A DNA stretch of 43,700 nt from the NCBI RefSeq assembly GCF_964194155.1, contig NW_027596098.1, positions 826,301 through 870,000 of the forward strand, written 5' to 3'. Positions 8,421-33,128 of the stretch are shown one piece after another. The notes beneath the pieces were generated by a model, which worked only from the letters and a program-made list of their open reading frames with translations, searched no databases and was not told the origin of the DNA. Each line of letters starts with the position of its first letter. Position 1 is the first letter of the stretch. A program made the translations under genes and the position numbers. The stretch comes from Cetorhinus maximus. Its lineage: Eukaryota.

Positions 8421-9370
8421 GTCTACAAATATGCATACACACAATCAACACGCGGATATTTTTATCATTTTCCTAATAAAAATCCCTGGAGACAAACGAT
8501 CACCTCTCCATTGCCTGAATGTAAAGTTATTATTCACAAACTTTGCCTATAAATGGGCCAACCCTCACTCATGTGCAGGACTGTTTATTTCTCTCCACAA
8601 TTGCACAATGGGTTACTACTGTGGGCCCACACCTTTGGAGATTCGCTATACAGAGACCCCGGATTTATTAGTGACCTCTCGTATTTCCCACTCCGTGACC
8701 CAAAGGATGTCAGCTGGTAAAACATCCTGCGGGAGATCACTCCATTGGAGGCACCGAGATGGACGGTGGGCAGTAGGTGGATTGAATATATAATTGTGGA
8801 GAGGAAAGTGAGGTTCATCACAAAAGTTTTCAGCCAGCTGTGGGTTTCCATCAGTCGGCAGATGCGTGGAATATTGATACTTGGGAGGGCATGAAGCCAG
8901 GGGAGGGCCGATGCATGGGGAAATGCAGTTAGGAGGCACATTGATGCATTCAAGTAAGTTCAACAAGGTGCGTGTGTGTGTCTGATGAGCTGTGCAAGGC
9001 AGTTACACAGTACTGTGCTGCGGAATATATGAGGACAAGTGCTGAGGCCCAGAGTATTGCGGCAGCAGGACCTAACCAAGATTTAACTACTGTCATTTAT
9101 ACGATGTTTCTGGTTTTCAACTTTGCAACTGTTTCCATCAGGTGATACCAAAAGTCCACAATCCTATTTATAGTCACAGCCGTTTGTGTTGTTTTGGGAT
9201 CGTACTTTTGCCTCTGACAATCCATTTAAACATGTTTTTCCAATTTGGCATTGCCATGATGGACATGGAATGCACTCGATAAATTGAAGGAATAATTCAA
9301 GTTGCCATGTGCTGCAGTAGCCCTCAAATTATCAAGGCATTTGTCAAGGATCTGGTCCAGGGTGGAGAAG

Positions 9371-10420
9371 GATTCCCTTCATCCCCCCTGACGGCATTCC
9401 GTAGGGATCGTTCCCTCCGGGACACCCTGGTCCACTCCTCCATCACCCCCTACTCTTCAACCCCCACCTATGGCACCTCCCCATGCCGACGCAGAAGATG
9501 CAACACCTGCCCCTTCACTTCCTCTCTCCTCACCGTCCAAGGGCCCAAACACTCCTTTCAAGTGAAGCAGCATTTCACTTGCATTTCCCCTAACTTAGTC
9601 TACTGCATTCGTTGCTCCCAATGCGGTCTCCTCTACATTGGAGAGACCAAACGCAAACTGGGCGACCGCTTTGCAGAACACCTGCGGTATGTCCGCAAGA
9701 AAGACGCAAACCTCCCTGTCGCTTACCATTTTAACACTCCACCCTGTTCTCTTACCCACATGTCTGTCCTTGGCTTGCTGCATTGTTCCAGTGAAGCCCA
9801 ACGCAAACTGGAGGAACAGCAACTCATCTTCCGACTAGGCACTTTACAGCCTTCCGAGCTGAATATTGAATTCAACAACTTTAGATCTTTAACTCCCCCT
9901 CCCCCCATCCCCACCCCGTTTCTCCCCCCTCCCTTTTTCTTCAATAATTTATATAGATCCTTCTTTCACACCTATTTCCATTATTTTTAAATCTAAAACT
10001 AAAACTTTGTTAGTCTTTCCACCCCACCCACACTAGAGCTGTACCTTGAGTATACTGTCTTCCATTCTTAAATAGCACTTTTCTTAGAGAATATCACCAC
10101 CTTCAACACCTCTTTGATCCTTTCGTCTGTGACATCTTTTGATTATCTGCTTCTATCACTCCTTGCTTATCTCCACAATCATCCCACCCTCAACTTCTCT
10201 CTCCCCCCGCCCCCCCTCCCCCCCCCCACCTTAGACCAGCTTATATTTCACCTTTCTCCTAACTATACTCAGTTCTGCCGAAGGGTCATGAATACTCGAA
10301 ACGTTAACTGATTGCTTCTCCACCGATGCTGCCAGACCTGCTGAGTTTTTCCAGGTAATTCTGTTTTTGTTTTGGATTTCCAGCATCCGCGGTAGCTTTT
10401 AGCTTTTTGTTTTTATCTAC
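9371..10420 (+). mobile_element. 5'-truncated Penelope-like element (GIY-YIG endonuclease C-terminus plus 3' tail)
   Basis: Open frame: AFRRDRSLRDTLVHS, PCRRRRCNTCP, FTC.SPNLVYCIRCSQCGLLYIGETKRKLGDRFAEHLR, HFN, RKLEEQQLIFRLGTLQPSELNIEF. Tail gatgctgccagacctgctgagtttttccag. Candidate TSD GGAGAAG (9364-9370) / GCAGAAG (10421-10427). Absent from the paralogous site at ~39130. Confidence 0.93.
10270..10310 (+). ncRNA. Minimal type I hammerhead ribozyme motif (Penelope-associated), core mutated
   Basis: CAGTT-CTGCCGA-A-GGGT(CATGAAT)ACTC-GAAA-CGTT-AACTG: stem I CAGTT/AACTG, stem II, palindromic AACGTT stem III. The core reads CUGCCGA instead of CUGANGA. Confidence 0.7.
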
Positions 10421-14720: not shown

Positions 14721-15005
14721 TGTCGAAGCAGAATTTGTGACCTGAATGAGATTCTCATTCATTCTGATCCGCAGACAGGCTCTAATAGGATTATGTACGT
14801 GAAAGCCATTGCAACGGTTTTACTTTGTCTGCAATTAGGCGCCAGGTGAATCGAACGCCTGCATTTCAAAGGAGAAGAAAGTATTTTTTTCTCTCGGAAA
14901 AGTGGCTGTAAAGATAGTTTTTCACCGATAATTATTTCTAACAGAACGTCCCAACTATTGTGTTTTGTAAGTGTATCTGAACTCGTCATAACTCTATTAG
15001 TTTAC

Positions 15006-15066
15006 ATCTCGGGGATAATTGTGTTCCTTTGGAGTCTGCAGAGTGTTCAGTCCCATTCTTGTGAGT
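15006..15066 (+). other. Candidate decayed signal-peptide (leader) exon
   Basis: (ATC)SGIIVFLWSLQSVQSHS followed by a phase-1 donor T|GTGAGT at 15061. No in-place ATG (ATC at 15006). Lies in non-repeat-looking sequence. Confidence 0.25.
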
Positions 15067-15329
15067 TGCTTAAGTTTCTCCTTTGCCTATTGATTCCATG
15101 GGATCACTTTACTCAGGTTCAGATACACTACAGTATCAGGAATGTATTCGTGGAACGTTTAAGGATTTTGACTCAGACTGAGCAGTAGCTGCATTTTCAG
15201 GGTAAAAAAAAAAACCCTATGTTTCAGTTAATTGTTAAGTAAATTGTTGCAATTACCCCATATTGGATTAAGTACCAGAACATAGGATAGTTTCTGGCTG
15301 ACTCATCGGTTTTCCTGGCGTTGTAGATG

Positions 15330-15740
15330 ATTGCCGCTTGCTTATTTTCCAGTGTGTCGCCCAAACCTCAAATCTTCTGCTTCTGGAAATGTCCTTTCGC
15401 CATTGTTTAAATCGCGCTGTGACTATTCGAAAAATCTGAGCTGGCCATTCCAAAGGCCATCCACAACTCTTCTGCATGTGCCCTTGTACTCAACAACTCC
15501 TGCTCACACATCACTCCCATTGTTAGCCAACCAACATTGTGACTAGCTCAAACGAAATTTCAAAAAATCGCTTCCTTGATTACCAAACCTCCATAGCTCT
15601 GTCCGAACCACTGCCTATAAATATCTGCAGTCCCTCAACCTTCCATGATGCCAATTCCACCAGGGCCTTGTCCCTCCATCTCTCTCTAATATTGTCACGT
15701 CCCAATCTCCTCACAGATATCAAATGCCTCCATGACTACA
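15330..15740 (+). mobile_element. L2 LINE 3' fragment
   Basis: cacatcactcccattgttagccaaccaacattg (HITP..., cf. HITPVLADLHWLP) at ~15507-15540. Confidence 0.55.
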
Positions 15741-15751
15741 TGTGGTACATT

Positions 15752-16303
15752 TGATGAACGGACCACAGGAGACTCAGGTAGGGGTTACGATAGTTTATTA
15801 GCCCAATTGCAAAGAAGCCACCATTTCAATACAGCTTGAGACATGACTCTGCTAAATTACAAGTGTTCAACATGTTTGTACATCGTTGCTCACGTACAAG
15901 AACAGTTTACAGAGTCCGACATCGTCAAATTATAGATGCATATTAACCAGGTATCTCTGGTAACAGTTACATGCATCGTATGACCCTATCTTTCATCCAG
16001 GCAGAAGCCTGCTTTCCTATCTAAGTTGGGACCATGTGGGTTCCCATATCTGTTGAACTGCACACTTAATATATGTTATTGCCATCCTATAACTCCAGTC
16101 TAACTCCCAGGACCTAGCTGGTGATTGCAAACCCTGAAGGTATACAAAGTTTGAGAGTGTATATGGTTCATCTAGTTTAACTGTTTAATTGTTGATTTAC
16201 TGATTTGTGGTGGCCTGCCTATAAATTTTAATTTAAGTAATTAATTCCCTTATAATGAATTATCCCTTAACATAAATTCTAATTTAGTTTCTTCCACCTA
16301 ACA
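15752..16303 (-). repeat. Putative 3' LTR of the endogenous retrovirus (~550 bp)
   Basis: On the minus strand it starts with TG immediately after the PPT, carries AATAAA at 15799-15794 and ends in CA at 15753-15752. The left boundary is less certain; no second copy is in the window. Confidence 0.65.
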
Positions 16304-16315
16304 GTCCCCCCTTTT
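16304..16315 (-). promoter_or_regulatory. Retroviral polypurine tract
   Basis: Minus strand AAAAGGGGGGAC directly followed by TG(TTAGG). Confidence 0.85.
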
Positions 16316-16519
16316 GACCCTTGGCCTAGCCCAAGGTAGCCAACTATAATGGTACTGTCTGTCCCTTTACGCACCGCTACGTTTCATGCCGGACATTCAA
16401 CCAGCTTTGGGTTGTGAGGGGTACCGTCAGACAATCTGTATCATTTGGCCGTTCAATTCAGGCCTCAGGTTTACCAAATTACTTCTCCGCCTGTTAAAAC
16501 TCCCCCAACACCACTTTTT

Positions 16520-18260
16520 TTTTTACTCCTGTGTGCAATGAATCAAGTATATAATCAATATCAATTGAAGTATAAGTAGGAATAGGATATAAACCGAATC
16601 CAATGGTTTTTCTCTACATTTGAGCCCCAATTCCACCACCACCATGTGGAGGAACCTATTCGCTCGATATCCTCCTTTAAGGCTCAAACCAATTGCTGTA
16701 GTGCATAATATGTTCTGTATATCTACTGAGTCTGTATCCGAATCGCGGTTAGGGGCTAGGGTAATAAGGTAATTTCATAGGGCAACTGATTCAAATACTG
16801 TGACAGGTTATCCTATCTTGTGTAATTCGACCACTTCCACTTTCCCAACAATTCCTGGCGCTTGTGGGTATAGGCAAACTAAATAATTGTGAATGGGACA
16901 TATCTGATTCTTACCCTATTGGAAATTCTGCTGCTACGTGGTGAAACAATATCTGCCATTCCATGTATATGCAACATGTGTCGGTACTTTTGCAGTTCAT
17001 ATAGTTTCCATTGTACAGTTTGCAGCAGCTTTATATCCAAAAATCACTTCCTCCGTCTCATGGATTAGTTGTGCACATAGTACTGCGGTGGCCTCTATCC
17101 TACACTGTTTCAATGTGGAGCTAACTATATTCACTTCTATGTCCACTGCATATGGCAGACTAATGCCCCCATATAACCCCAATACTTTCTACTCTATATA
17201 AGGTCCTGCTGGGTGTCTCATGTATCGCTAGTACAATGTCTATTAGCATATTACTATTCACTATACATTCAATATTCATTCTAAATATGTGTGTTAAACC
17301 TTTGAGCTGGGAACAGGTGAAGTCCTGTTTATTGTGTCATGAAAGGTTCAATATACGCTCATTAGTTACCCATAAAGGAACTACACCTTCATTAATCTGT
17401 CTAAAATTCTCTCGGGCCTATTCCAGTGCCCACGATCCATAGGTGCTGCAAACATCATGTCTGCTTGCTTCATCTGAACTATTTTCCCTGTTTCAATTAT
17501 TTTATTGGTAGTCCAGGCATCACTTGCGAGCACGGTAGCCAGTCTTTAGATTAAAAGTGTCATGTCCTGGTCTGTATTTATTTGGGTCTTATGGATTCAC
17601 TGTCCCCGATCCAGAATCTCTTGAAGCTTACAGCTCAGGGTACGGACCATGTGGTCATCAGTTGCCAGTTTCTGAATTAACCACTAATGTCCCTATATTG
17701 AATATCGTAGCGGCATCATTTATCAGGCTTTCCTTAAGGGGGTTCCCTCCCAAGCCTAATTGCATCTCGCCTTTGAACTGAGATGCATCAGTCATCAGAT
17801 GGCCCAATGGAGCCATATATATTTCTCGAATATGGGTTCAGCACCACTGGGGCGTGTCAATTCTGGATATGTTCAAGGCTACGGGTACCCGCTCTTGGTG
17901 TACATTATTATACAAAACTTCTGATTAACCAGTACCAAACCATTAGTCAGTCCTAGATGACTAGTCGGACAAAGTTGATTAGTCATTGTGGTATGAGAGT
18001 TTTGATTTATCTCGACTCAGACTGTGGAAGTAAACGTGCAAGGTGGCTGGAGAGTGCCGGACCTCCCACATCTGATCTGAAGCAAGCCCTAACTATAATT
18101 CGAAAGCAGTTGATCTCCTACTGGTACATTTATCATTTCCTGCTTTGTGTTGCATTCAGCACGCTATACCAAAGTTCTTCAAGTGTTGCGGTATGAGCAA
18201 TAATGTTCCCCGACCTTGTTGACAGTATTGATACGTCCACGACCAGGATCGTAGATCTGT
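16520..18260 (-). pseudogene. env: Retroviral env pseudogene with F-protein-like layout (lokiretrovirus-like)
   Basis: In order: NGLVLV/EVLYNNVHQERVPVALNIS..PQWC; candidate fusion peptide LINDAATIFNIGTLVVNS (17726-17673); heptad-like segment; VCSTYGSWALE*ARENFRQINEGVVPLWV; IVLAI..LYRVESIGVI; Cys-rich LKQC..VLC..NCT..GRYCFTT..ICP..VC; YYALQQLV*ALKEDIERI; WWWWNWG; TM ILFLLILQLILIIYLI. Located between IN and the PPT. Multiple stops and frameshifts. Confidence 0.75.
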
Positions 18261-18309
18261 GGAGAATTTAACATCGGCTCCCGTTCTCCGAGTTACCGCT
18301 TGGTCCATT

Positions 18310-19010
18310 GTCATGCATCTTTAACTGTGCGTAATGCCCCCATTTACTTCCCGTTTTCAAATCTACAAGTGTGCATGTCTCTCATGGTATAATTAACACG
18401 TATGGTCCATGATTGTTGTCTCTGGGCTCACCTTGACTGTCACCGTATTACCAACTTGGTCTATTATTGTTCTCTGCATTTGCTTGTTTCCATATCCTTA
18501 ATCAGTTGTCGGTCTCTTACTTCTTTCCTTAACTCATGCAATTGCTTACTTATTTCCCTCACATAGACTCGCATCCTTCCTTTTAGTGGCCCTACATCTC
18601 CCACTCATGCTATGATCCCCGCGGGTAACTGCATTGCTCTCCTTGTAATTATTTCAAATGTGGTGAACACGCCGGTCCTGCATGGGGTAGCCGGAATGCG
18701 CATTAGAATATTGGGCTGTTCCCTGTCTCTTGAATTACTTTTGTGTTTGACGTTTTTTCATTAACTTCAGTTCATCCTTTCACCCGTCCCCGAGCTCTGT
18801 GGCTGGTAGGGAATGTGGAATTTATTTTTATATTTAAGTTTATACATTTATTTAGTGGCGCATAATGTGAAATGAGTTCCCTGATCTAAATCCAGCTGGG
18901 TAGGCACCCCAAATACTTCCAGTTTACTCTCTCGTGCTGCTGTCCGACGTCGGACCTCAATTCTCTTAAACTGCCGACACAATTATAAAATGCACCTTTT
19001 TATCCTATTT
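18310..19010 (-). pseudogene. pol: Retroviral integrase (core + C-terminal) remnant
   Basis: FGVPTQLDLDQGTHFT, KFHIPYQPQSSGRV, NILMRIPATPCRTGVFTTFEIITRRAMQLP, GPYVLI and KWGHYAQLK on the minus strand. Confidence 0.9.
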
Positions 19011-20373
19011 TTCAAAGACACTGTATCTTCACTTACAGTGACGGTTCTCTCAAGGAGCTGCTTAACTGTCTGTCATCATAATGTTAATCCTGTGGTCTTA
19101 CATTTTTTAGCTCGCAGGCACATGAATACAATCAGTAATACATCGATTTAGCCTTTTTTCAAGCTCTCCCTTTACCTGTATCCATCTTGTGGTAAATTGT
19201 TGTTAAGTATTAATTCTCCTTAGATTTCAATTCCTGAACCACAGATTCCACATATTTTTAAAGCAATTTATTTTCCCATCACCATAATAATGCTTAGATT
19301 CTCTTTATTTCACTTTTCTAATGTCTTGAAAGTTTATAATGTTTCCTTGCTCTTTAGGCCGTAATAACTATTCTGTGGCAATGAGGATCTCTCTCTCTAG
19401 ATCTTTGCTTACCTCGCCCTGTGCGTTTCAAATGTCTCAGTTGATGCGCAGATTATCAAATACACTTATCTGAAAAAACGTTTGAATATTGTGTCATTTT
19501 CCCCTAACTCTTTCTCCTACTTGCCTCATACTATTTTGCAAATGCAAGAACTACCACCTTATCTTGTTCAGGTTGTCTGGAAAGGCTTTAAAATATATGA
19601 AATATTCTCAGAACAGTTTTAAAAACCGAAATCAGGTTTTGACATGTTCCTTATCTTCTTCTCAAACAACATTTTATTGTCTCAAAATTAACTCACTAAA
19701 ATGTGTCTGACCCGTTTCATTTAGAATTATCCCAGAATCATTTAATTGCCCAAAAATTGGATTTCTGCCAAAATTTGTCAAGACCTTGAGCTCAGCTTCA
19801 TATTTTGGGAACAGACTTTACAAATGCAAAATCTTGCAGCATTTAAATTAAGGTCCATTATTGTCAAATCTTTTAAACTGATAATTCCCTTTTGAGAAAT
19901 TTTGAGGAACCAAACTTCAAATTTTAAACTTTGTAAGAAATGTATTTTAAACTATCAATGTTCAAACTACGTCTTTCTTATGTGGATTGATTTGTATCGA
20001 AATTATAATTCCCGTCTGCTCATCGAAATATTCTTTATCTCAGATAGCATCTTAGTGAATGAAGATTAATCTTCTAAACTACACTGCACTTAACACCTCA
20101 AGCCTTAGACCAAATTGAAGTAAAAGTGCTGTTGAGATGCAGATTTCCTTTCATATTTAATTCATCTCTTCAAAAGAAACCCCTTTTAACCCATTGGAGC
20201 CACCTAGAACAAATGTTTATTCCATTTGATTGTCCTGGAATCCCTTGAACTTCAGGTAATTTTTCCCCTCAGAATTTTAGAATAATAACTCGTATGAGAT
20301 AATGCAACTCTTATGTATCAATTCCAATCAGCTGGGAAGCTGGTGACACTAGTCTGCAAGGGTGTGGTCCAAA

Positions 20374-20818
20374 TGTTATTTCTTCTAAATATTTTTAACG
20401 ACTTAAAGCTCTCATATTCTAAGGGAAAATTCAAATAACAGTGCTGGAAATAAAGGGATCTTGAAGGCTCTACCTTTAGGGACAATCAAACTGACAGAAG
20501 CTCACATTTCCCTTGCTACTGCCTGTCAGTGGTTATTAACGCCTTTCTGGCTACCCCCATTTTCTCGCTTTCTCTCTCCAAGTTTTTCTCTCTCTTCAGC
20601 ACAAATAGCTCTTGTAGCGGAGCAGCACCAGGTGTAGCTAAAAATGGGATCATTACTGCTCCATCAGTCTACACTGCATCATTACTGAAGTGATTGAATG
20701 GGTCTTCACCAGTGCTAGCATTTGACACTTGCTTCGCATTAACCTGATCACCGACGTCCTGTTTGGTGTCCACTAGTATCACTCTGTTCCTGACTTCATT
20801 TCAACCTTAGTTGTAACA
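20374..20818. repeat. Possible LTR of a second LTR element (TGTTA...TAACA termini)
   Basis: Begins TGTTAT and ends TGTAACA; on the minus strand it is followed by TTTGG at the PBS position. Not similar to the 15752-16303 LTR. Confidence 0.35.
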
Positions 20819-20819
20819 T

Positions 20820-22005
20820 AGATAAATGAGCTGAACTTCCGAGGTTACGTGAAAGTAACTACCCTTGAAATCAATACCGGGTGCGTCATCAAAGCGTCAT
20901 AACAAGACTGGAGTCAATAGCACAATGAATCAACTTGGCACAATGGAAGATGGTTGTGGTTGTTGGGGCTCAGTCGTCTTATCTGCAGGACATCACCGCA
21001 GAAGGTGCTAAAATATTGCCCAGTATCCAACCATCTTCAGCTGCTTCATTAATAACATTTATTCCACCGTAAGGTCAGAAATGGGGATGTTTGCTCATGA
21101 TTCCGCAATGTTCATCAACATTCGACTCCTCAGATGATGAACCCGATCCTGTGCAAAAGCAGCTTGACCTGGTGAATACCAGGCTTGGGCTGACAAGTGA
21201 CATTTGCGCCACACAATTGTCTGGCAATGACCACCTCCATCAAGAAAGAATGCAAACATCACCCATTGACATTCAGTGACATTAGTATAACTGAATTCCC
21301 CACTATCAACATCCTAGCGTTTATATTGACAGAAACTGTACTGGACTAGCCATATAAGTGATGTAGCTATAAGAGTTGGCCATCGGCTAACAACCCTGCG
21401 ACGAGCAACTCACCCCCTGGCTTCCCAAAGCCTGCCCTACATCTAAGGCACAAGTCAGGAGTGTGATGGGATACTCCCCACCGCCTGGAAGAATGCTGCT
21501 CTCACAACACTTAAGAAGCTTGACAACACGCAGGAAATAAACATTCTGGTTCAGTGGCACCACATCCACAAATATTCACTCCCTCCACCACTGAAAAACA
21601 CAGCAGCAGAAGTGTGTACTATCTTGAACATGCACTACAAGAATTTGCCATGGCTCCTTCGAAAGAGCCTTCGGACAAAAACGACCACAACTATCTAGAA
21701 GAACCCCTGCAGCAGTTAAAAATGAACAACAACACCCGAAAGCTCCCCGGCATCCGCCCCCCGCCCACCCCCACCCGCACAATTCACTCACCATCGTGAC
21801 TTGGAAATGTATCGATCTTTCTTCGCTGTCGTTGCTTCACAATATTGGAACTCCCACCGTAACAGCACTGTGGATTTCCCTGCGCCACATGGACTGCAGC
21901 GGTTAAAGAATGCAGCTCACCATCACTTCCTGAAGGACAACTAGTTGTGGGCAATAAATGCTGTCCAGCCAGCGAAGCTCAGAGCCCATGAATGATTTTT
22001 TTAAA
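20820..22005 (+). mobile_element. CR1-group LINE 3' portion including its 3' end
   Basis: PTIFSCFIN..VRSEMGMFAHD (~21030-21100), YKAQVRSVMEY-like sequence (~21443-21475), and terminal gggcaataaatgctgtccagccagcgaagctcagagcccatgaatga. Confidence 0.85.
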
Positions 22006-22009
22006 AATA

Positions 22010-23620
22010 GTATTAAAATAGGTCCTGTAAGTGTATCCGTATAATTGGGGATCAATAGGGTGTATATTGGCTGTGCAGGGGCCTCGGGGAACATTCCACT
22101 GCTTTTGAGGGTTCCTCTCGCTTCAGTCATGTATTTATCGAGGGTCTCCGGGCAGTGTGTCGCTATTAATACGGGACACACAGGTTGTGTCTCATTATTT
22201 ATAAGGGATCCCCGCGGTGTTTCTCAGTATTTTTACTGGATCCCCGCGATGTTTATCTGTATTTATTGGGGTTGCAGGGGACTGTGTCTGAATTTAAAGT
22301 GTGTTCTTCATTAAAGTGCAAATAGGTAGAGGGTTGTTACTGCTCGTCAGTAAGCATTTGCGAGATTTCCCAGGAGTGTGAGAGAGTATTTGAAGGGTGT
22401 CAAGGAGTATGTCTGACCAATTTGACTGAACACCAGGAAGTATGTCGGTTTTTAGGGGGCTCACCGTGCAGTTCGTCTGTATTTAGTTAGTGTCTTTATT
22501 GAGTGTGCCGGAAGGTGCAGGGGTTAAACGAGTAATAAGTAAGTGTTTACGTTTTCAACTGGGGGAGTGAGTGAGCATTCATTGCATGGAAAGTAACAGA
22601 CATTGTGTCCGTACACACTGTTGGTCTGTGAGAGGAGTGTCAATATTTCATGGGTATCTCTGTGGAATGTGTCACTATTTCCTGTCGTTCCTTGGGGCCC
22701 TGGGGAGGGTGTCAGTATTTCAATGGGGCCCTGGGGACGTATATGCTATGTATCCCCGGGGATTGTTTTGGGATTTCATGGGTGTCCCTATGAAGTTCGT
22801 CTTTATCTCCTGGAGATGCCGTGGTAATATATGTGTATTTCATGGTAGTCAATAGTAAGTTTTTTGATATTTCATGGGGGTCCCTGGGGAGAGAATTCCA
22901 ACGACCTGGTGGCCCCTGATGGTGAGTTACTTGCTATTTCCTGGCTGCCCCCAGGGAGTGTGTCCGGATTAACATTTGGTCCCTGAGGAGTTTTTTCTTG
23001 ATTTGCTGTGGGCCCCTGGAGATTGTGCCTGTATTTCCTGGGGAAAATGGACAGTGTTTCCATATATTTGGGGTATGCGGAGTGTGTCAGCATTTACTGA
23101 TGGTCCCTGATACATGTGTCGGAATTTGCTTTCTGTCCCTCTGGGTTGAGATGGGATTTGCTTTGTGTCCCTGGGGAGCTTGTCCGGATTTGCTGCTGGT
23201 CACTGGTGAATATGTCGTAAACCCCAGAGCATTTCCCAGTAACACGCTGCAAAAATGGCCACAGTACAAAGGGACCCCCCAGGAAAGTTGGATATTCTCA
23301 ACTGGGATGCCGAAGAAATTCCAAACCACTATCCAGGGACCCAAAATATATATAAACGTGTCCACCGGGTACACAGGAATTACCTACGCAATCACAAGGG
23401 GCACCAGGAAATATGAAACCACTCGCCAGGGTCCCCCAGGAAATTCATAGAAACTCCACATGGTCACGCAGCAAATCCTGGCATAAGCACCAGGGGCCAG
23501 CAGCAGTCCTGGCACATTCCCCTGGGATGCGCAGAATATCCAGGCGCTCTCTCCATGGACCCACAGCAAATCCCTACTCTGTCACCGTGGACACACAATG
23601 AACCCCAGAAAACTCTGCAG
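22010..23620. repeat. Degenerate ~32-nt tandem repeat with a strand inversion at ~23218
   Basis: Unit approximately GGTCCCTGGGGAGTGTGTCCGGATTTGCTGCT (gtccct-like cores at ~22979, 23012, 23103, 23135, 23167, 23198). After ~23220 the reverse complement recurs (gcagcaaatcctggcataagcaccaggggcc). Confidence 0.8.
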
Positions 23621-23669
23621 GGACGAATTTCATACTCCTGCTCCTATGCTTTCTGTTCATATGCCCTCT

Positions 23670-24085
23670 TTCCATTCAGTTGGATAACCGAGTTCACTTT
23701 TATTGTCACTATCCCTCGAGCCTGATGAAGTGATAACACACTTATTGTCATTCCAAAAATAGGTAGATCACTGTGCTCACTCTCATTGCACTGTCCATCA
23801 ATTTGAATCACTGACCTCTCTCATATAATCATTTTTCATCCAGTTACATCGCTTAACTCACTCTTATTGTAACTTTACATCCAGTTATATCATCGTGCCT
23901 GACTCTTATTGTCACTATCCCTCCATATAGATTATTGACTTCTCTTGTATGGCCACGATACAACCAGTTAGATCATTTACATTACTCTCATTTTCACTGT
24001 CCATTCAGTTAGATTACTGACCTCAATTTGATAAAATTTGAAAACGCCATGGAGAATTACGCATACTTTAATTGTCATTTCCCAT
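23670..24085. repeat. Degenerate ~41-nt tandem repeat (~10 copies)
   Basis: tattgtca-like cores at ~23701, 23743, 23784, 23823, 23865, 23907, 23947, 23989 and 24070, with cagtta(g/c)at spacers. Confidence 0.7.
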
Positions 24086-24129
24086 GCAGACAAAGCACTG
24101 ATCTCAATGTATGAAGAAATAACATTACA

Positions 24130-24595
24130 TAGAACATTAAATGCAAGCTTAATGCCTCTCTCCATTATGGTACATCACTGAACTCACATCCACAAAAATT
24201 CACTGTCTCCAACACCGACACACAGTGGCAGCTCTTTGTAAGGCACTCAAGGTGCACTGCAGGAACTTACCAATGCTCTTCACACTGAATTATTCATGTC
24301 CCCGGCCACTATATCAATAGCTCAAGGAAAGCAAACACATGGAAACACAACCACTAGGGTGTTATGCTCCACACCACGCACCATCGTGAATTGAAATGTT
24401 ATTGCCATTGCTTCATTGTCGATGATTGAAAATGCTACAACTCCCTTCCGAACAGCGCTGAGTTTCCGCACGTCACCAGGAGTGCAGTAGTTAAAGAAGG
24501 AAATTCACCACCACCTTTACAAGAGCATTTTGCGATGCGAAACTCATGCTGGTCCATCCGGACATGCACACATTCCATCAACATATATTTAAAAA
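24130..24595 (+). mobile_element. 3' fragment of the same CR1-group LINE family
   Basis: Collinear with 21530-22000 (aaaattcactgtctccaacaccg..., ggagtgcagtagttaaagaagg..caccaccacc). Confidence 0.7.
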
Positions 24596-25219
24596 TTAAT
24601 TAATTACTCTTAGAGTTGCTGTGTGAAAAGCAGTTCCAACTGGATCCTGAACGCGAAATGGATGAAAGAAGCGATATTTGACTCAAAGTTCATTTGCAAA
24701 CTGAATTCCATATAAACAGCAGTTTATTTGCTGAGAGCGGCCCCTGTAGTTAGAGCTTTGTTCCAGGGGTTACACTCTCCATGGGATACAATCCTGACAG
24801 GATAACGGTTTGCTTTGTAACCGATCTCCAGATTTTTCTCAATTCAGCATTAACGATTAGAAACAAATGTTTTCTGAGGAAATCCATCTGACGTGTTCAG
24901 GATCATTGTATCTTTTTCTCCCCCATCGTCCAAATGTTTGTTGAACAATCTCTAGCTTTCCGCAACATCCCCCCCCGCCCCACCCCCTTCCCACCCCCAC
25001 CCCACACCCCCATCCCTACCCTAAATGTAATTCTGTTCCGCACGGTGATCACTATCTGTGTACAGTGCTTTCTGAAATTAATCTTCATTCAGTTTTTACC
25101 AGTTAAATCCATGTCTGTTTTTTATCTACAATGACGGGTATCAGCATTACCCTCGTCGATTCACACTCAGTTTTCTGACCAGCAACAATGAAGCAACGGT
25201 GACATAGTTACAACTCAGA

Positions 25220-26620
25220 TTTGTGAGTAGCTTGAAGGGGAGCTTCTGTCTGGTAGACTCCCTATGTGTATGGTGGCCTTGTCCTGCTGGATGTCAGTGG
25301 TCATTGGTTTTGAAGTTGGTGGAGAAGGCGCCTTGGTGAGTTACTGCAGTGCATCTAGCAGATGGTACACACAAATTCCACTGTGACACGGTGGCGCAGC
25401 GGCTAGGTGATGAATGAGGTGGATGGTGTGCCAATCAAGCGAGATACTTTGACCTAGATGTTCTGGACCAACCTGAGTGTTCTGGTTGCTACACTCATCC
25501 AGGCGAGTGGAGCACATTGAACCAAACGGTCAACCTCTGCCTTGTAGATTGTGAATATGTATGGGGAGTTAGGTGGTGTGTAATTCCACAAATGATTCGT
25601 TACCTCTGACATGCTCTTGAAGCCACATTATTTATATGGCTACTCCAAATCAGTTTCTGGTCAACGGTAACCAAAGACTGCTGCTAGAGAGGGATTCAGT
25701 GAAAGATTTGTCAATCAAGTTGAATGGGTAATATTTACTCTTTCTTCCTGGAGACGTTAATTGCCTAGCACTTGTATGACACGAATGTTACATGTCACTT
25801 ATCAGCCCACAACTGAATGTTGTCCAAGTCTTGCTGCATTTCGGCTCAGTCTGCTTCAGCATCTGAGGAGAAACAAATGGCAATGAACACTGTGCACTCA
25901 TCAGTGAACACGCCCACTTCTGACATTCTGATGGATGGAAGGTGAGCTCTGAAGAGGCTTAAGATTATAGGCCTTGGAAAGTACCCTGATAAAATTATGT
26001 AGTGATGTCGTGGAACTGTGATTATTGACGGACAACAACCTCAAACATTTTCCTTTGTCCGAGGTGTAAGTCCAACTAGAGGAGCGTTTTTTCTTCGTGA
26101 TTCCCATTAACCTCATTTTACCACGGCTAATTGATGCCACACTTAGTCAAGTGCTACATTGATGTCATGGGCAGTAACACTAACCCTCACGTCTAGAGTC
26201 AGCTCTGTGTCCATGTTTGGATTAAACAATGTAAATAGGTCATTAGCTGAATGATGCTTGTGCAGCCCAAACTGAGCGTTGGCGAGCAGATTATTGCTGA
26301 GTTGAAATGTGAAAGTTTCGATCAGGCTTTGCAATACTTTACTGATGATCGAGTTCAGAATGATGGAGCCACCAGTTGCCAATGTGGATTTGTCATGTTT
26401 GTGTACAGGACATGCCAGGAAAACATAGGGGTTAAGATTCCACAGTTGTAACTATACTGGAAGAGCTTGGATAGAGGCGTCACAAATGCTGGAGCAGAAG
26501 TCTTCAATACTATTGATGAAAGATTGTCAGGGCCCATAGACTTTGCGGTACACTGTGCTATTAGCCATTCCTGGATACACGTGGATTCAACCGAATTGGC
26601 TGCAGCTTTACGCAAATTTC
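25220..26620 (-). mobile_element. CR1-group LINE remnant, reverse orientation
   Basis: KSMGPDNLSSIVLKTSAPAFVTPLSKLFQYSYNCGI (ORF 26355-26684) and NNLLANAQFG..HSANDL..AHDINVALD (ORF 26143-26382). Confidence 0.85.
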
Positions 26621-27095
26621 CAATTAACGAGTCACATTCTACTTTAAGGCCACAGAATATATTATTTAGACATTCACCAATCAACTTTCAGCTTAATGTT
26701 AAAATTGAATTTCTGCTTCTGACGTTATATTTTGATTTATATTTCTTAGGTTTATTTTATATATGCCCAAAATTAAAATTCACGTAGATGGATGGACATC
26801 TCTAACTTATGTTCAGGATGTTTGATAATCAATTCAAATCAGTTGAAATATTATTGTTAATGGATCGAGACCTGTAAAATCATTAAAGCCTCTTCCATGA
26901 TATTAAACATTGGTAGGAAAACCTTGTGAACTTGCTGTGTTCAATACAATGCGACTAATTTGTAACAGAAACAGTCAGTTCCCATGGAAACTCACATTAT
27001 TTACAGTCCGTGCTGGGAAAGCATGATCTAATTTTCCTTAGGAAAACTGTAAATTTCAGCTTCCAACCAAATGCATTTTAGTGACCTCAATGCAG

Positions 27096-27403: not shown

Positions 27404-30400
27404 GTCAAAGCACCACACCCTATCCATCAGGAATTGTCACCATTCGGATTCCGTGCCTCGCAAACCTGGCATGCACCGGATAAGGGTGAACTAACTTGGC
27501 TGGAACTGAAGTCTGCACTGCCCATTCAGTCCAATTTTCTGGGTGCCGGGATCTGAGGTGCGAAGGCGAGGAGCGGGAGAAAGGCATGAATTAAGGAATG
27601 CCGTGGGGGCTTAAAAGGCAGCAGGGGTGTAGAAACAGCTCAGAAAAGTGGGGGAGTTGGTGGTGAGAAAGGCGAATCTAAAACTGGGTGTGGGTGATGT
27701 GCAAGAGGGAAAGCCATGGAAGGGAGAGGGAGGTGTTTTGTAAAGGGTGGAATGTCTCCAAAGGGAAGTGTGGAAGGTTGTCTGTAAAGGGGAATGTGAA
27801 AGGTGGTCTGCAAAAGGGAGGTTCGAAGTTGTCATGTAAAGGGGCGTTTCTAATGTGCTCTTTAATGTGTAGTCTGAAAGGTGACCTGTAAATCTGGGTT
27901 TACAAGGTGATCTGTAAATTGGTGTGGAAGGAGCTCTATCAACGTGGTGTGGAAGGTGGTCTCTAAAGGGAGCTCTTGTAGGTTGTCTGTAAACTGAATG
28001 TAGAATGTGGTGTGTAACCTGTGGTATGAAAGGTGGTCTGTAATAGGTAGGGTGTAGAAGGTGATTAGCAAGGGAGTTGTGGAAGATGGCCTGTAAAGTC
28101 CATGTGTAAGATGATATTTAAAGGGGGCTCGTAAGGCGGTGGGCAACTTGTGGTGTGGAAGAGGGCCTGTACGAGGTAGGATGTAGAAGGTGATCAGCAA
28201 GGTGTGTGCGGAATGTGGTCTGTAAGGTGCTGAGAAAAGCGATCTTAAAAGTGGGTATTGAAGCCGCGCCATTAAAATGAAGGAATGGAAGAAAGGCTGT
28301 TAAGCGGGGGTGTGCAGCATGGACTGTAAGGTGCGAGTGTGGAAGTTACTCTGTGAAGTGGAGGTGTGGAAGTTAGCCTGAAAAGTTTCGGTGTGGAAAT
28401 GCTTTTGTAAAGCAGGGGCATCGAAGCTGGTCTGTAAAGTGGGGCTGTTGAAGGTGGTCTGTAAATTGGGGGCGTGGAAGGTGGTCAGTTATGTGAGAGT
28501 GTTGCAGGTGTACAGTAAATTGGGGGTGTCGAATATGAGCTGAAAAGTGGGGTGTGGACGGTGGCATTTATGCGGTGGTCGGTAAAGTTTGATCAGCAAG
28601 GTCTCTATGGAATGCTACCTGCCAATGGGTTTTGAAATGTGGTATGTCAAGAGAGTGTGGAAGGTGAGCTGTAATGTGAGGGTGTGGAAGGTGGTCTGTT
28701 AGGTGGGTATTTCGAATTTTTTCTGTTAAGTGTGGGTGTAAAAGATGACCTGTAAATTGAGGGTGTGGAAGATGGTCTGTAAAGTGGGGGTGAGGAAAAT
28801 TGGAAAATACTCTGTAAATTTCGGGTATGCATGGTGGCCTGTAAAGTGGGTGTGAGGAATGTGGTCTGAAAAATGGGTGTATGGAAGGTGGACTTTAAAG
28901 AGGTTACTTGATGTTGGTCTTTAAAGTGGGAGATAGGAAGTTGGAACGTAAATTTGGTTGTTGAAGATTACCTGTGGAGGTAGGGTTTGGAATATGATAG
29001 TTAAAGGGAGAATGCAAGATAATCGGTATAGAATATATGGATGGTGGACTCTAAAGGGGGGTGTGAATGGTGGGCTGCAAGGTGGGTGCTGAAGGTGACC
29101 TGAAAAGATGGTTGTAGATTGTGATCTGTATAGTCGGTGTTGATGTGGTCTGAAAAAAACTGGCAAGCAGGATGGTCCATAAAGTTGGGGTGTGTATGGT
29201 GGTCTTTAAAGGGATGTATGAAATGTGATCTGCAAAGGTCGCTGTGGAAGCTTGTCTGTAAAGGGTTGTATAAGGTGGTCTGCGAAGCGGGTTGTGGAAT
29301 GTGGTCTGCAAACTGGGATGTGTACGGTGGTCTGTCAGCAGTGGGTTGTGGAAGGTCATCTGCAAGGTGGTGTGGAATGTGGCCTGTAAATGGATTGGAT
29401 AATGTGGTCTGTATATTGGGGGCATTGACTTCGGTCTGAAAGGGGGGTGAATAATCCTCTGTAAAGGGCTGGATGTGGAATTTGATTGCAAGAGTGCTGT
29501 GGAATGTGTTCTGCCAAGAGGGTGTTCAAGGTGTACTCTAAATTGGGGCCGTGGAAGCTGGCCAGCGAAGGGTGGTGTGGTTGATAATCTGCAGAGGGCC
29601 GAATGAGGAAGGTCGTCTGAAAAGTGTGGGGGGCGTGGAATTCGGCCTGTAATTTTGAATATTGGAAGGTGGTTTTTAAACTGGAATGGGTGTGCAATTG
29701 GGTCCGTAAAGGCAGTATGCAAAATCACCCTCATAGGGGATTGCGGAATGTGGTCTGTAAAGTGGGCTGTGTTTGGTGGCCTTCAAAGGGGGCGTGGAAA
29801 GTGGTCTGTAAAACGGGATGTGGCATGTGTCTAGAAATGTGGGTGAGGGGGGAGGGGGGCGCTGTTGGTGGATGGTGGTACGCAAATTAGGGGTGTGGAA
29901 AGTGGTCTGTAAAATGCGGTTCAGGGTGATGTTTTATGAAATGGAATGTGGAAGGTATTATGTAAAGTTGGGTTGTGCAAGTTATTCTGTAAAATGGGGT
30001 TAAGGGTGATGTTATTTAAAGGATCGGTCTGGAAGGCTCACTGTAAATTTGGGGTGTGTATGGTGTTCTGTAACGTGGATGTGGGGAAGGTGATCTGGAA
30101 AGCCAGGTGTGGATGGTCTTGCATAATGCGAGGATGTGGAAAGTGGTCTATAACGTGGGGGCCTGCAAGGTGGTCAGCAACTGCAGTTGTGGCCCGGAAA
30201 GTGCAGTGTGGGAGGTATTCTTTTAAGTGGGGTGCGGATGGCGGAGAATAATGGACAGTGTACATTGTGGTCCATAAAAGGAGGGATGGGGGGGGGGGGG
30301 GGGGGGGGCGGGAAAGGGATGTGGTAGCTGGTCTGTAAAGGTAAGTTTGGAAGGTGTTTTTTAATTGTGGGTGCTTGTGAAATTCGGACAGTAAAGCTGG

Positions 30401-31522
30401 CATTGTAATCTGATCCTTATATGGGAATGTAGAATGCGCTCTTTAAGTTGGGCTGTAGTTGGTGGTCTTTAAATGGGGTTTGGAAGTTTGTCTTTAAAGA
30501 GGATGTGAATGTTCCAATGTGAAAGGTATGTGGAAGCTGTAAAGGGGCTATGGAAGTTGGCTGAAAAGATGGATATGGAAGGTGGTCTGTAAAGTGTGGA
30601 TTTGCGGAATGTTGTGTGAAGGGAGAAGTGGAAGCTGTTCTGTAAAGTGGGGTTGTGGAATGTGGTCTACAATGTGGGGGTGCAGAAAGTGTTCCAAAAT
30701 GTCGGAGTGTGCAGGTTGCTCTGTAAAGGACGTTTAGAAGATGATCTGTTAAGTGTTTTGTGCATGGTGTGCTGTAAAGGGGTGTGCGATAGGTGAAATG
30801 TAAATAGGGCATGTGAAAGGTGTTCTTGAAATGGAGGTGAGGAATCTGGAATTAAAAGTTGGGTGTGGAAGATCATCTGTAAAGTCGATGTTTGAAAGGT
30901 GTTCTGTAAATTGAGAGTGGGAAGATTCTCTTAAACGGCGGGTTTGGAAGGTGGACTGCAAAGAGGGGTGCCAAATATAGCCATTAATTGGGCGTGTCTG
31001 TAAAGTGCCGATGTGGAACGTGTTATGTGATGCGAGGGTGTGCAAGTTGGTTGATAATGAGGGTGTGGAAAGTGTTCTGCAAAGTGGGCGTGTAGAAGGT
31101 GGCCTTTAAAGGAGGTATGAGGAAGTTGGTCTGTAAAGTGGGAGTGTGGAAGAGCTTCTCTAAAGTGGAGGTTTAAAGGTGGTCTGTTAATTGGGGTGAA
31201 GAAGATGGTTTTTAATTAGGGGTGTGAAAGGTAGAATGTAAAGAGGTGTGAAGAGGTGTTCTGTAAAGTCGGATGAGGAAGGTGGATTTAAAGGGCTCTG
31301 TAGAATGTGGCCTTTAATGTAGCATGTGGAAGTTGATCTGTAAAGTGAGGGTGTGGAATGTTGTCTATAATCTGGGGGCTTGCAAGGGTCTTTGGGTGAT
31401 GGACCGTTAAGTGGGTGAGTGGAAGCGGTTTTTAAAGGAGGGTGTGGAAGGTGGTTTGCAATGTGATGCTAGGAATGTGGTATATCACAAAGAGTAGGAA
31501 TAAATGGGTATTTTTCGAAGAC

Positions 31523-32010
31523 GGGAGGGGGAGCGAGAGGGAGAGGGAGAGTAGAGCAGAGGAGAGAAGAGGTCGAGGAGATGGAGGGGATGGAGGGAGA
31601 GGAGAGGAGAGCAGAGGGAGAGGAGAGGGAGAGGAGTGGAGAGGAGAGGAGAGGTTAGGAGAGGGAGAGGGAGAGAGTGAGGGAGAGGAGTGGGAGATGG
31701 AGAGGAGAGGAGAGGGAGAGAAGAGGAGGAGGGAGAGGAGAATATAGGAGAGGGAGAGGAGAGGAGGGGAGAGGAGAGGAGAGGAGATGACAGGGAGAGG
31801 GAGAGGGAGAGTTGACGTGAAAGAGGAGAGGAGAGGAGCGGAGAGGGAGAGTAGAGGGTGAGGGAGAGGAGAGGACAGGGAGAGGAGGGACTAGGGAGAG
31901 GGAGAGGGGAAGGAGATGGAGAGGAGAGGAGAGGATAGGGAGAGGAGTGGGAGAGGAGAGGGAGAGGGGTGGAGAGGAGAGGGAGTGGAGAGGGAGAGGA
32001 GGGGGTAGAG
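31523..32010. repeat. (GGAGA/GGGAGA)n polypurine microsatellite
   Basis: About 490 nt of almost pure G/A. Confidence 0.95.
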
Positions 32011-32356
32011 ACTAAGTGTAGATTCTGGAAGGATGTTCCTGATGGTGGGGGAGTCCAGATGCAGGGTGCACAGTCTTAATATACGAGGTAAACAATTTCG
32101 GACTTAGATAAGGTGAAATTTCATCACCCAGAGAGAAACGAGCCTATGGAATTCGCTGCCACAGAATGAATTTGAGAGCAAAATATTGCATGTTTTCAAG
32201 AATGACATGGATATTGATGTTGGAGTGAAAGGTATCATAGGAGGGAGAATGCGGGATTAGGCTATTGATTTGGATGATCAGCCATGATCATAATGAATGG
32301 TGCAGCAGTCTAGAAGGGCCAAATTGTGTATACCTGCTCCTGTTTTCTATGTTCCT
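32010..32356 (+). mobile_element. CR1/HER1-type LINE 3' end
   Basis: ggaaggatgttcctgatggtgggggagtccag..gatcagccatgatcataatgaatggtgcagcag..cctgctcctgttttctatgtt. Confidence 0.85.
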
Positions 32357-33128
32357 TTAATGGGTGATGTGTGCAATTTGGTATGTAAGTGGTTTTAGGA
32401 GATTGGCTGTAAAGTGAGGGTGTGGAAGACGGTCTGTAATTTCAGGTTGTGGAAGATGGACTCCAAAGAGGACTGTGGAGGATCGTCTGTAAAATGGGCC
32501 GCAAATGGTGGTATTTAAAGCGAGGGTGAGGAAGAAAGTATTTGACGGTTGTGTAGAAGCTGGACTGTAACATGGCGCTGTGGAACGTAGTCAGTTAAGT
32601 GGTCTCGATTTTCGGGTTGTGGAACATGGACCTGCAATTTGCGGTATGGAAGTTTGTCTGTAAATTGGGGTCAGGAAAATTGTTTAAAAAGTAATGCTTT
32701 TTGAAAATGGACTCTAAATTCTAATTGAAGAAGGTGGTCTGTAAAGTTCGGGGGGCTCTAAATTGTTGTTTCTAAATTGGGTCTGTGCAAAGGGGTCTGT
32801 AGATTTGTGTATGGGGATGGCATATAACGGGTTGTGATTACTTTAATATTTGAAGTGGATCTGCAATGTTGTCTGTAATTGGGTCTGGGTGTGTGGGTTA
32901 TGGTATGTGACGATGGGTGTGTAAGGCAATGTGTAAACGGGGTGTGGTCTGTGGTCTGTAAACGGGTTTGGAGGTGATCTGCTAAGGAGGTATGGATGGT
33001 GATGCGTCTGCTAACATTATTTGATAACACATTAAAATGACTCCCTTGTTAATAGTAGAGGGTAACTGTTCAATGACAAAATTAGGATCCATGAAGAGTT
33101 GCATTAATTACAGTCACTGAAGAAACAG

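Follow-up and report, generated by a model that had tools for sequence, protein, structure and literature searches.

An endogenous retrovirus family of the shark Cetorhinus maximus combines enzymes of the SnRV grade with a predicted F-type envelope protein related to that of lokiretroviruses

We analysed a 43,700-nt stretch of the genome of Cetorhinus maximus, hereafter the window, whose minus strand carries the remains of an endogenous retrovirus (ERV). Read in its own direction, the element consists of an AT-rich block, an integrase (IN) remnant, an env remnant, a polypurine tract (PPT) and a 3' long terminal repeat (LTR) (Table 1). An earlier note on this DNA had described the same minus-strand order of integrase, an env-like frame of ~1.75 kb, PPT and LTR, and the coordinates obtained here bear it out. 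The limits that it gave (15752..19010) have to be revised, as the LTR ends at ~15740 and the element extends upstream to 20616. The LTR was said to be bounded by TG and CA; it does start with TG, while the terminal ACA of the family has decayed in the window. Copies found elsewhere in the 4.0-Gb genome that was searched for members of the family are designated L043, L048, L060 and so on.

Table 1. Features of the provirus and its flank in the window, and the unbroken env frame of copy L043
Feature	Position	Strand	Basis or remark
AT-rich block, 35% GC, replacing protease-reverse transcriptase in the subfamily without reverse transcriptase	18950..20616	-	marks the 5' limit of the element in the window
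Integrase remnant, C-terminal part of the core and C-terminal domain, with stops and frameshifts	18274..18913	-	tblastn with P0112
env remnant, predicted class Ib F-type, with the ~306-nt N-terminal deletion of the subfamily	about 16523..18270	-	tblastn; L043 fold
Decayed furin site and fusion peptide, NPLKES/LINDAATIFNIGTLVVNS	17673..17741	-	translation compared with REKR/SLMNDAATIFNTG in L043
Transmembrane helix	16541..16588	-	window translation; hydropathy peak at matching L043 Env residues 686-713
PPT AAAAGGGGGGAC	16304..16315	-	sequence; equally placed in other copies
3' LTR, ~565 nt, begins TGTTAG, terminus decayed	15738..16303	-	84% over 569 nt to the 3' LTR of L059
Unrelated interspersed repeat adjoining the truncated 5' end, outside the provirus	20650..21995	.	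~70% to flanks of other loci, in either orientation
Unbroken env frame, 724 aa	L043:1198-3381 (G000:C32)	-	only such copy among 128 scored

As had been noticed before, the window env is broken by stops and frameshifts: tblastn recovered it as eight pieces in three frames, with 13 stops across 561 aligned codons. Its six main pieces share 51-70% protein identity with the unbroken env frame of L043 and, compared with full-length copies, ~100 N-terminal codons are absent. The position that had been taken for a degraded cleavage site followed by an early fusion peptide, NPLKES/LINDAATIFNIGTLVVNS, corresponds to REKR/SLMNDAATIFNTGTSIVNS in L043, and the Trp cluster and the transmembrane (TM) helix that had been reported are retained. 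The IN remnant is 44% identical to the full shark-type Pol P0112 (E 2e-30). It covers ~110 of 209 residues, the N-terminal half with the zinc-binding domain and the region of the first catalytic Asp having been lost. The 5' LTR, the primer-binding site (PBS) and gag are absent from the window copy, and a self-search of the window revealed one copy of the LTR only. The AT-rich block is common to other copies at 80-87% (best 40 of 1,441 candidates scored), is also present in the intermediate copy L060, and gave no blastn or tblastx match to L043 and L048, which bear a reverse transcriptase (RT). Between 18950 and 20616 it is without similarity to pol.

A search of the genome with the env DNA returned 1,023 first-look candidates (40 scored) and one with the Env protein 3,103 (128 scored), counts that are lower bounds on scoring and not copy numbers. 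Of the 40 copies scored, 30 match at 76-100% over essentially the full 1.75 kb of env, so that chance does not account for the finding. We examined 38 copies together with 10 kb of upstream DNA; these were picked by env similarity and therefore do not constitute a census. The paired-LTR copies that the earlier note had proposed to look for are present in the same genome, as 27 of the 38 have a true LTR pair (29 pairs were called, two of which, L016 and L049, were other repeats and were dropped; nine copies are without a pair). The Kimura two-parameter (K2P) divergence of the LTRs is 0.015-0.096 with a median of ~0.045, which corresponds to 10-100 million years at the mammalian and assumed shark rates used in PMC4422223 (available in part). 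Target-site duplications are of 4-5 bp; among 20 copies with both LTR ends, seven are perfect 5-bp duplications (eight with L006, by eye), six are perfect 4-bp duplications and the others are imperfect or unreadable. The PBS TGGCGTAGTCGGCAGGAT was found within three mismatches in 10 of 19 copies. The pattern complementary to it occurs at 50 genomic sites (reversed control, 0), and of three sites tested two are tRNA-Ser genes and the third was called Leu. A second PBS variant (GCGCTGCGAGCAGGG-like), perhaps using a different primer tRNA, follows the 5' LTR in L050, L052 and L055.

Protease (PR) and RT are present in only two of the 38 env-selected copies, L043 and L048, in the order gag with a CCHC knuckle (zf-CCHC, E 0.005), PR, RT with YVDD, tether, RNase H (RH), IN and env. 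Both align to P0112 across tether and RH, that is, they have a dual RNase H; this feature is common to all retroviruses and therefore not diagnostic of lokiretroviruses. The parent virus accordingly reads LTR, tRNA-Ser PBS, gag (one CCHC), PR-RT-tether-RNase H-IN, env, PPT and LTR, in ~8-9 kb. The remaining copies resemble the window copy: they measure ~6.8 kb, carry the AT-rich block where PR-RT-RH would lie, and keep half an integrase. L060 stands between the two types, as the AT-rich block replaces PR-RT while tether, RH, IN and the long env N-terminus are kept. The nearest named relatives of Pol and Env are those of Heterodontus, Mustelus, Chiloscyllium, Scyliorhinus, Heptranchias and Pristiophorus, all of them elasmobranchs and in line with a shark host, followed by those of frogs. 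A horn-shark protein used as a host query matched a different repeat instead of a host gene.

In 23 of 30 short-type copies the net env deletion is exactly 306 nt and in frame (305 in the window copy). We compared env variants of these 30 copies over 545 codon columns using an omega-like ratio, which was 1.11 for singletons, 0.66 for variants found in 2-3 copies and 0.31 for those found in at least four, and 1.01 for the window copy env. At the level of sequence, these values show neutral decay after insertion and purifying selection on shared env changes. Because shared env variants bear this mark of selection, the RT-less derivative likely spread with a helper. Judging from the intermediate copy L060, the derivative would first have exchanged PR-RT for the AT-rich block; loss of RNase H and of half the IN would have come next, together with an in-frame deletion of 102 env codons. 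Its copies may then have grown to hundreds or thousands, probably with packaging and copying done in trans by the Pol of a helper, and its shortened Env would have stayed under selection during this helper-driven spread. Inserted copies would then have decayed neutrally; the window copy is one such fossil and was, with its flanks, duplicated afterwards. In seven of 15 short copies (L005, L006, L008, L010, L013, L017 and L020), the 5' part of env, where the sense frame is broken, has an open antisense frame of at least 153 codons.

Lokiretroviruses are defined by their RT as the sister group of all canonical retroviruses, and their RT rows share the motifs QY(K/R)(I/L)PL, W-P-(M/V) and CPFGY/PFGY (PMC7947760, available in part). 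The earlier note had taken the element for a loki-like provirus, which would have extended the host range of the group to chondrichthyans. We built trees of 35-55 rows picked from 66 under LG+G4, with lokiretroviruses (L101, L102, L105), snakehead retrovirus (SnRV; L088, whose RT matches the SnRV row of Dataset S3 in the accessible part of PMC7947760), foamy, gamma/epsilon- and betaretroviruses, SIV and Gypsy as references; the RT trees test RT-bearing family copies, the window copy having no RT. In the RT+tether tree (35 rows x 397 columns), lokiretroviruses fell outside a canonical retrovirus clade (100/97) that includes the shark element. The latter fell together with further Pols from sharks (100/99) and with teleost relatives (89/83), at a position one node nearer the crown than SnRV, so that its RT is placed inside the canonical retroviruses and outside the foamy, gamma/epsilon and beta/lenti crowns. 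A grouping with lokiretroviruses was rejected by the approximately unbiased (AU) test on RT+tether (p=3e-6) and had p=0.045 on RT alone, where support was 97/100. In the integrase phylogeny, a check that had been suggested for the loki assignment, the window IN piece and a family IN joined the shark Pol clade (98/96) on a long branch, and the loki grouping was rejected at p=0.03 (CGIN1 was not among the references). Furthermore, the family RT reads QYPIK, HPIVASP and TWTRMPQGFHN, which is SnRV-like, the loki signatures are absent, and RT identity is 39% to lokiretroviruses vs 43-50% to SnRV and its frog and coelacanth kin (43% for SnRV). A Ty3/Gypsy errantivirus was also considered and rejected, as the RT+tether tree separates the family from the Gypsy outgroup with 100/100 support.

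A lokiretrovirus, the first in cartilaginous fish, is already refuted on the RT by which the group is defined, unless wider sampling moves the clade, and we regard this reading as highly improbable. It draws on the Env profile, which matches loki Env best (97.8%, E 6.5e-13; 50 bits in hmmsearch vs 15 or less for others), on the blastp result for the window IN piece, whose next match after its own clade is loki (72 vs 70 bits), and on the dual RNase H. Besides the trees and motifs, the host range argues against it: none of the six chondrichthyan genomes in the accessible part of PMC7947760 was loki-positive, and an exact search for a loki RT motif, which would miss decayed copies, gave no match in the genome examined here. 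The SnRV/class III grade, which is the clade Huo of PMC6001957 (available in part), is paraphyletic in our trees. Because of the RT, RT+tether and IN placements and the RT motifs, the family is, as far as its sequences tell, a member of this grade, not provably sister to SnRV, and not a lokiretrovirus.

The trees bear as well on a foamy-like ERV of the clade formed by CmiFLERV and XtrFLERV (FLERV, foamy-like endogenous retrovirus), which spans shark and frog hosts and whose gag and env were never found. The best PDB match of the RT is foamy (147 bits vs 123 for MLV), a shark+foamy grouping had an AU p of 0.094, the Env relatives in sharks and frogs follow the FLERV host pattern described in PMC5512871 (available in part), and foamy Env itself is F-like (PMC11468914, available in part). 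Nevertheless, maximum-likelihood trees put the family outside the foamy viruses (99/93; weaker, 80/78), with CmiFLERV and XtrFLERV not among the rows, and its Env has 724 aa vs about 990. The CCHC knuckle of the family Gag also argues against a foamy origin, as foamy Gag is not known to have one. In addition, the PBS is of the Ser type and not of the Lys or Asn types given for foamy viruses in the part of PMC5512871 available to us, and a foamy-like ERV appears quite unlikely.

The unbroken Env of L043 has 18 cysteines and is composed of a signal peptide, a ~180-residue N-terminal domain, an F2-like strand, a furin site (REKR), a fusion peptide, a first heptad repeat (HR1), a cysteine-rich beta region, a second heptad repeat (HR2) and a TM segment. 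The N-terminal domain is likely receptor binding; folded as a single sequence it gave no usable model (pLDDT 35). Pfam was searched with 12 natural fragments, the unbroken Env and 29 family members, and this profile check, which the earlier note had proposed, returned no Fusion_gly, Baculo_F, Gypsy or TLV_coat match, whereas control Envs do match TLV_coat. PDB sequence searches with the Env and the Env profile gave nothing significant, and a word-based homolog search retained none of 7,998 candidates. HMMER over 1.84 billion proteins found 43 Env relatives.

An AlphaFold model of the L043 Env ectodomain (residues 200-685, 45-row alignment) reached a pLDDT of 68 and a pTM of 0.52. The Foldseek comparison that had likewise been proposed found, among the matches listed from PDB, F proteins only, with the F protein of respiratory syncytial virus (RSV) best (E 1.6e-11) and that of human parainfluenza virus 3 also present. 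In VIA, nine F proteins rank first (Z 12.1-9.0), among them the F proteins of Newcastle disease virus (Z 12.1, 388 aligned, rmsd 17.7) and human metapneumovirus (Z 10.3, 274 aligned, rmsd 5.7); foamy Env follows at Z 8.9, above helical noise (8.4 and below). The first ESM Atlas match is a Fusion_gly/Baculo_F cluster (0.94), and BFVD fold matches include lispivirus F, baculovirus F, a fish filovirus glycoprotein and the Envs of the epsilonretroviruses WEHV-1 and WDSV and of feline foamy virus.

Profile tests with natural reference Envs made loki Env the closest in sequence among the retroviral Envs tested, at 97.6-98% hhalign probability and E about 1e-12. SnRV Env reached 68-90%, colinear over 281-347 columns from the pre-cleavage CP motif to the cysteine-rich region, although BLASTP alone gave no match between the two. 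Single foamy Envs reached 3-61% and a foamy profile 78%, while six gamma-type Envs and 12 shuffled or reversed controls all stayed below 2%. That the Env has the architecture of a paramyxo- or pneumovirus F, as had been read from the broken window copy, is supported by the model and by its Foldseek and VIA matches; that it is not gamma-type agrees with these low probabilities, with the missing TLV_coat match and with the failure to find CX6CC in the unbroken L043 Env. The family Env is, from its predicted structure, a class Ib fusion protein. Membrane fusion would proceed as with F proteins, by cleavage, HR1 extension and formation of a six-helix bundle.

We also surveyed the pairing of Env and Pol at 20 RT-sampled loci of the same genome (44-71% RT identity). 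The same F-type Env lies downstream of RT in 16 of these SnRV-grade loci, and eight of them (L166-L173) represent two families that group with SnRV and with frog and coelacanth elements (92/86). A small gamma-type profile matched none of the 20, a weak result because no in-genome positive control was available. These two families look younger and have long open pol frames beside the same type of Env; one of them is 76% identical to a sawshark protein.

Taken together, we estimate a probability of about 0.82 that the window element is a dead, 5'-truncated, RT-less derivative from a canonical ERV family of the SnRV/class III grade with a predicted class Ib Env. Since the enzymes of this family are canonical and near those of SnRV, yet its Env is related to that of lokiretroviruses, our results suggest that an F-type Env is an old and widespread retroviral trait and not a hallmark of lokiretroviruses. 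The simplest reading is that it is old in the SnRV grade and was later replaced by a gamma-type Env in some lines.

The main rival to an old F-type Env is an early transfer, in which a SnRV-grade lineage took its env from an early lokiretrovirus, or the reverse, and the shared Env reflects transfer instead of ancestry. It concerns the history of Env and is compatible with a SnRV-grade classification. Such a transfer would explain why loki Env is by far the nearest to the family Env, well ahead of those of SnRV and foamy viruses, while in Pol the nearer one is SnRV. Env swaps are common in the grade: in CmiERV lineage I the same PBS is combined with a gamma-type Env (LQNRMALD and CX6CC, by eye), and Pol/Env incongruence and Env swaps are described in the accessible part of 10.1101/2021.11.23.469661. 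Furthermore, the IN tree groups lokiretroviruses with frog and coelacanth SnRV-like elements (99/97), and for this reason some exchange between the two lineages seems to have happened. Conversely, both deep branches of the grade are represented in this genome by loci with the same Env type (16/20), the Env of SnRV itself can be aligned colinearly with that of the family over 344-347 columns, and the fold is common to the Envs of foamy viruses, WEHV-1 and WDSV; the transfer would need to predate the whole SnRV grade. We therefore consider it the less likely history, though one to be taken seriously.

Several points weigh against the classification as a SnRV-grade family with an F-type Env. The AU test does not reject a foamy grouping (p=0.094 on RT+tether, 0.28 on RT alone), and the shark clade and SnRV form no clade in the best trees; RT alone does not reject their grouping (p=0.42). 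Lokiretroviruses were represented by three metagenome contigs only, no FLERV, ERV-L or Odin references were included, and the AU tests were run under LG+G4 with no mixture model. None of the 29 family members matches Pfam Fusion_gly (PF00523), while loki Envs match it weakly, in agreement with the published result. In sequence, the Env lies nearer to that of lokiretroviruses than to that of SnRV, and a transfer of env from loki into the SnRV grade would account for this as well. Finally, the low omega-like ratio of shared variants may stem from recurrent synonymous CpG changes or be inherited from before the loss of RT.

Four origin scenarios for retroviral Env were left open in PMC7947760, which in its accessible part saw no canonical Env that resembles loki Env, and a follow-up to that paper favoured independent Env acquisitions. 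We found no open-access paper reporting an F-type, loki-related Env on SnRV-like ERVs, subscription literature being mostly outside this search. A canonical clade with an Env homologous to those of loki, SnRV and foamy viruses favours a shared F-type ancestor or an early transfer; it provides a sequence bridge between loki and canonical Envs, and its many sequences are usable for testing the origin of retroviral Env. A lokiretrovirus cannot be recognised by an F-like Env alone, and screens with gamma- or beta-type Env queries miss this Env class, here in more than 1,000 candidate copies.

The L043 env has no break in 724 codons vs 15 in the 1,101 codons of its pol (11 stops and at least four frameshifts), a difference with a Poisson probability of 5e-5, or ~0.007 when allowing for the 128 scored copies, L043 having been selected as the best among many copies. 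Among the LTR pairs, that of L043 has the highest divergence (K2P 0.096), and a substitution-only simulation at this LTR-derived divergence gave 0.7-1.3%. Private changes of L043 have an omega-like ratio of 0.44 in env vs 2.09 in pol (Fisher p=0.0008). The env value is the lowest among 11 env copies tested and differs from that of L048 (p=0.006), but is not significantly below that of L060 (p=0.13). In a DNA run of another organism, one contig runs from the L043 flank into the LTR; an env piece of that organism shows 8 differences in 290 (2.8%) vs 217 in 3,038 (7.1%) elsewhere, and a second env piece, which may be a paralog, differs by 10%. Contig depth is far higher over env than over pol, which is not a copy number. 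No RNA data set was listed for the unbroken env, and two presumed-RNA runs yielded only short pieces, mostly 90-95% alike and so assigned to related copies; these results speak neither for nor against expression of L043.

These sequence comparisons make the L043 env a candidate co-opted host gene, at about even odds; if true, the capture of such an F-type env by a shark would add a fusogen of a new kind to those known to be co-opted. A wider proposal holds both that the F-type Env is ancestral to all vertebrate retroviruses and that L043 was kept as a syncytin-like host gene. As the shark family links loki, SnRV and foamy Envs by sequence, gamma- and beta-type Envs would in that case be later replacements. 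We put this combined proposal forward tentatively, as somewhat short of an even chance.

A segment of at least 12 kb with the provirus and its flanks (window 15000-27000) recurs at 98-99% on two further contigs (L002/L038 and L003/L039), either by segmental duplication or as redundant assembly. The repeat adjoining the truncated 5' end is, at a guess, LINE-like. Elsewhere in the window, a large degenerate 26-27-bp tandem array with a strong G skew occupies 27600-33100 and includes a GA-rich simple repeat at 31500-32050. A 235-codon frame at 9283-9990 (+) resembles, by its motif, the GIY-YIG endonuclease of a Penelope-like element, and a fragment at 40176-40603 (-) likewise resembles the zinc-binding region of a Gypsy-type integrase.

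Among known systems, SnRV and clade Huo belong to the same canonical RT grade as the shark family (43% RT identity), a single CCHC in Gag is shared with SnRV, and the SnRV and family Envs are colinear. The family differs in that it is not sister to SnRV in the best trees, in its shorter Env (724 aa vs 1,134, ~19% identical), in having no long 3' open reading frame in the region seen between env and LTR, and in its tRNA-Ser PBS and the dominance of an RT-less derivative. CmiERV lineage I of the elephant shark (PMC4422223, available in part) has a SnRV-like Pol, the same PBS TGGCGTAGTCGGCAGGAT and LTR ends TGTTAG...AACA, but its Env is gamma-type (ISD and CX6CC, by eye) whereas that of the family is F-type.

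With lokiretroviruses, as described in the accessible part of PMC7947760, the family shares an F-like Env with signal peptide, RxKR site, fusion peptide, coiled coil and TM, a dual RNase H, and detectable Env profile homology (98%). In contrast, neither its RT nor its IN falls within the loki clade, the RT signatures of lokiretroviruses are absent, and its Env has no Pfam Fusion_gly match and carries an extra N-terminal domain. Lokiretroviruses are further marked by an integrase of a CGIN1-related type and, optionally, by an smc-like gene ahead of gag. Foamy Env has a common F-like core (VIA Z 8.9 and 8.2; foamy profile 78%), but its receptor-binding domain is inserted between the subunits (PMC11468914, available in part), whereas the extra domain of the family is N-terminal and the core near a minimal F. 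The F proteins of paramyxo- and pneumoviruses, lispiviruses and baculoviruses are alike in predicted fold at 8-14% identity. The predicted fold therefore points to no donor of the Env: identity is low, and in BFVD paramyxovirus F ranks below the glycoproteins of arthropod negative-strand viruses, that of a fish filovirus and baculovirus F.

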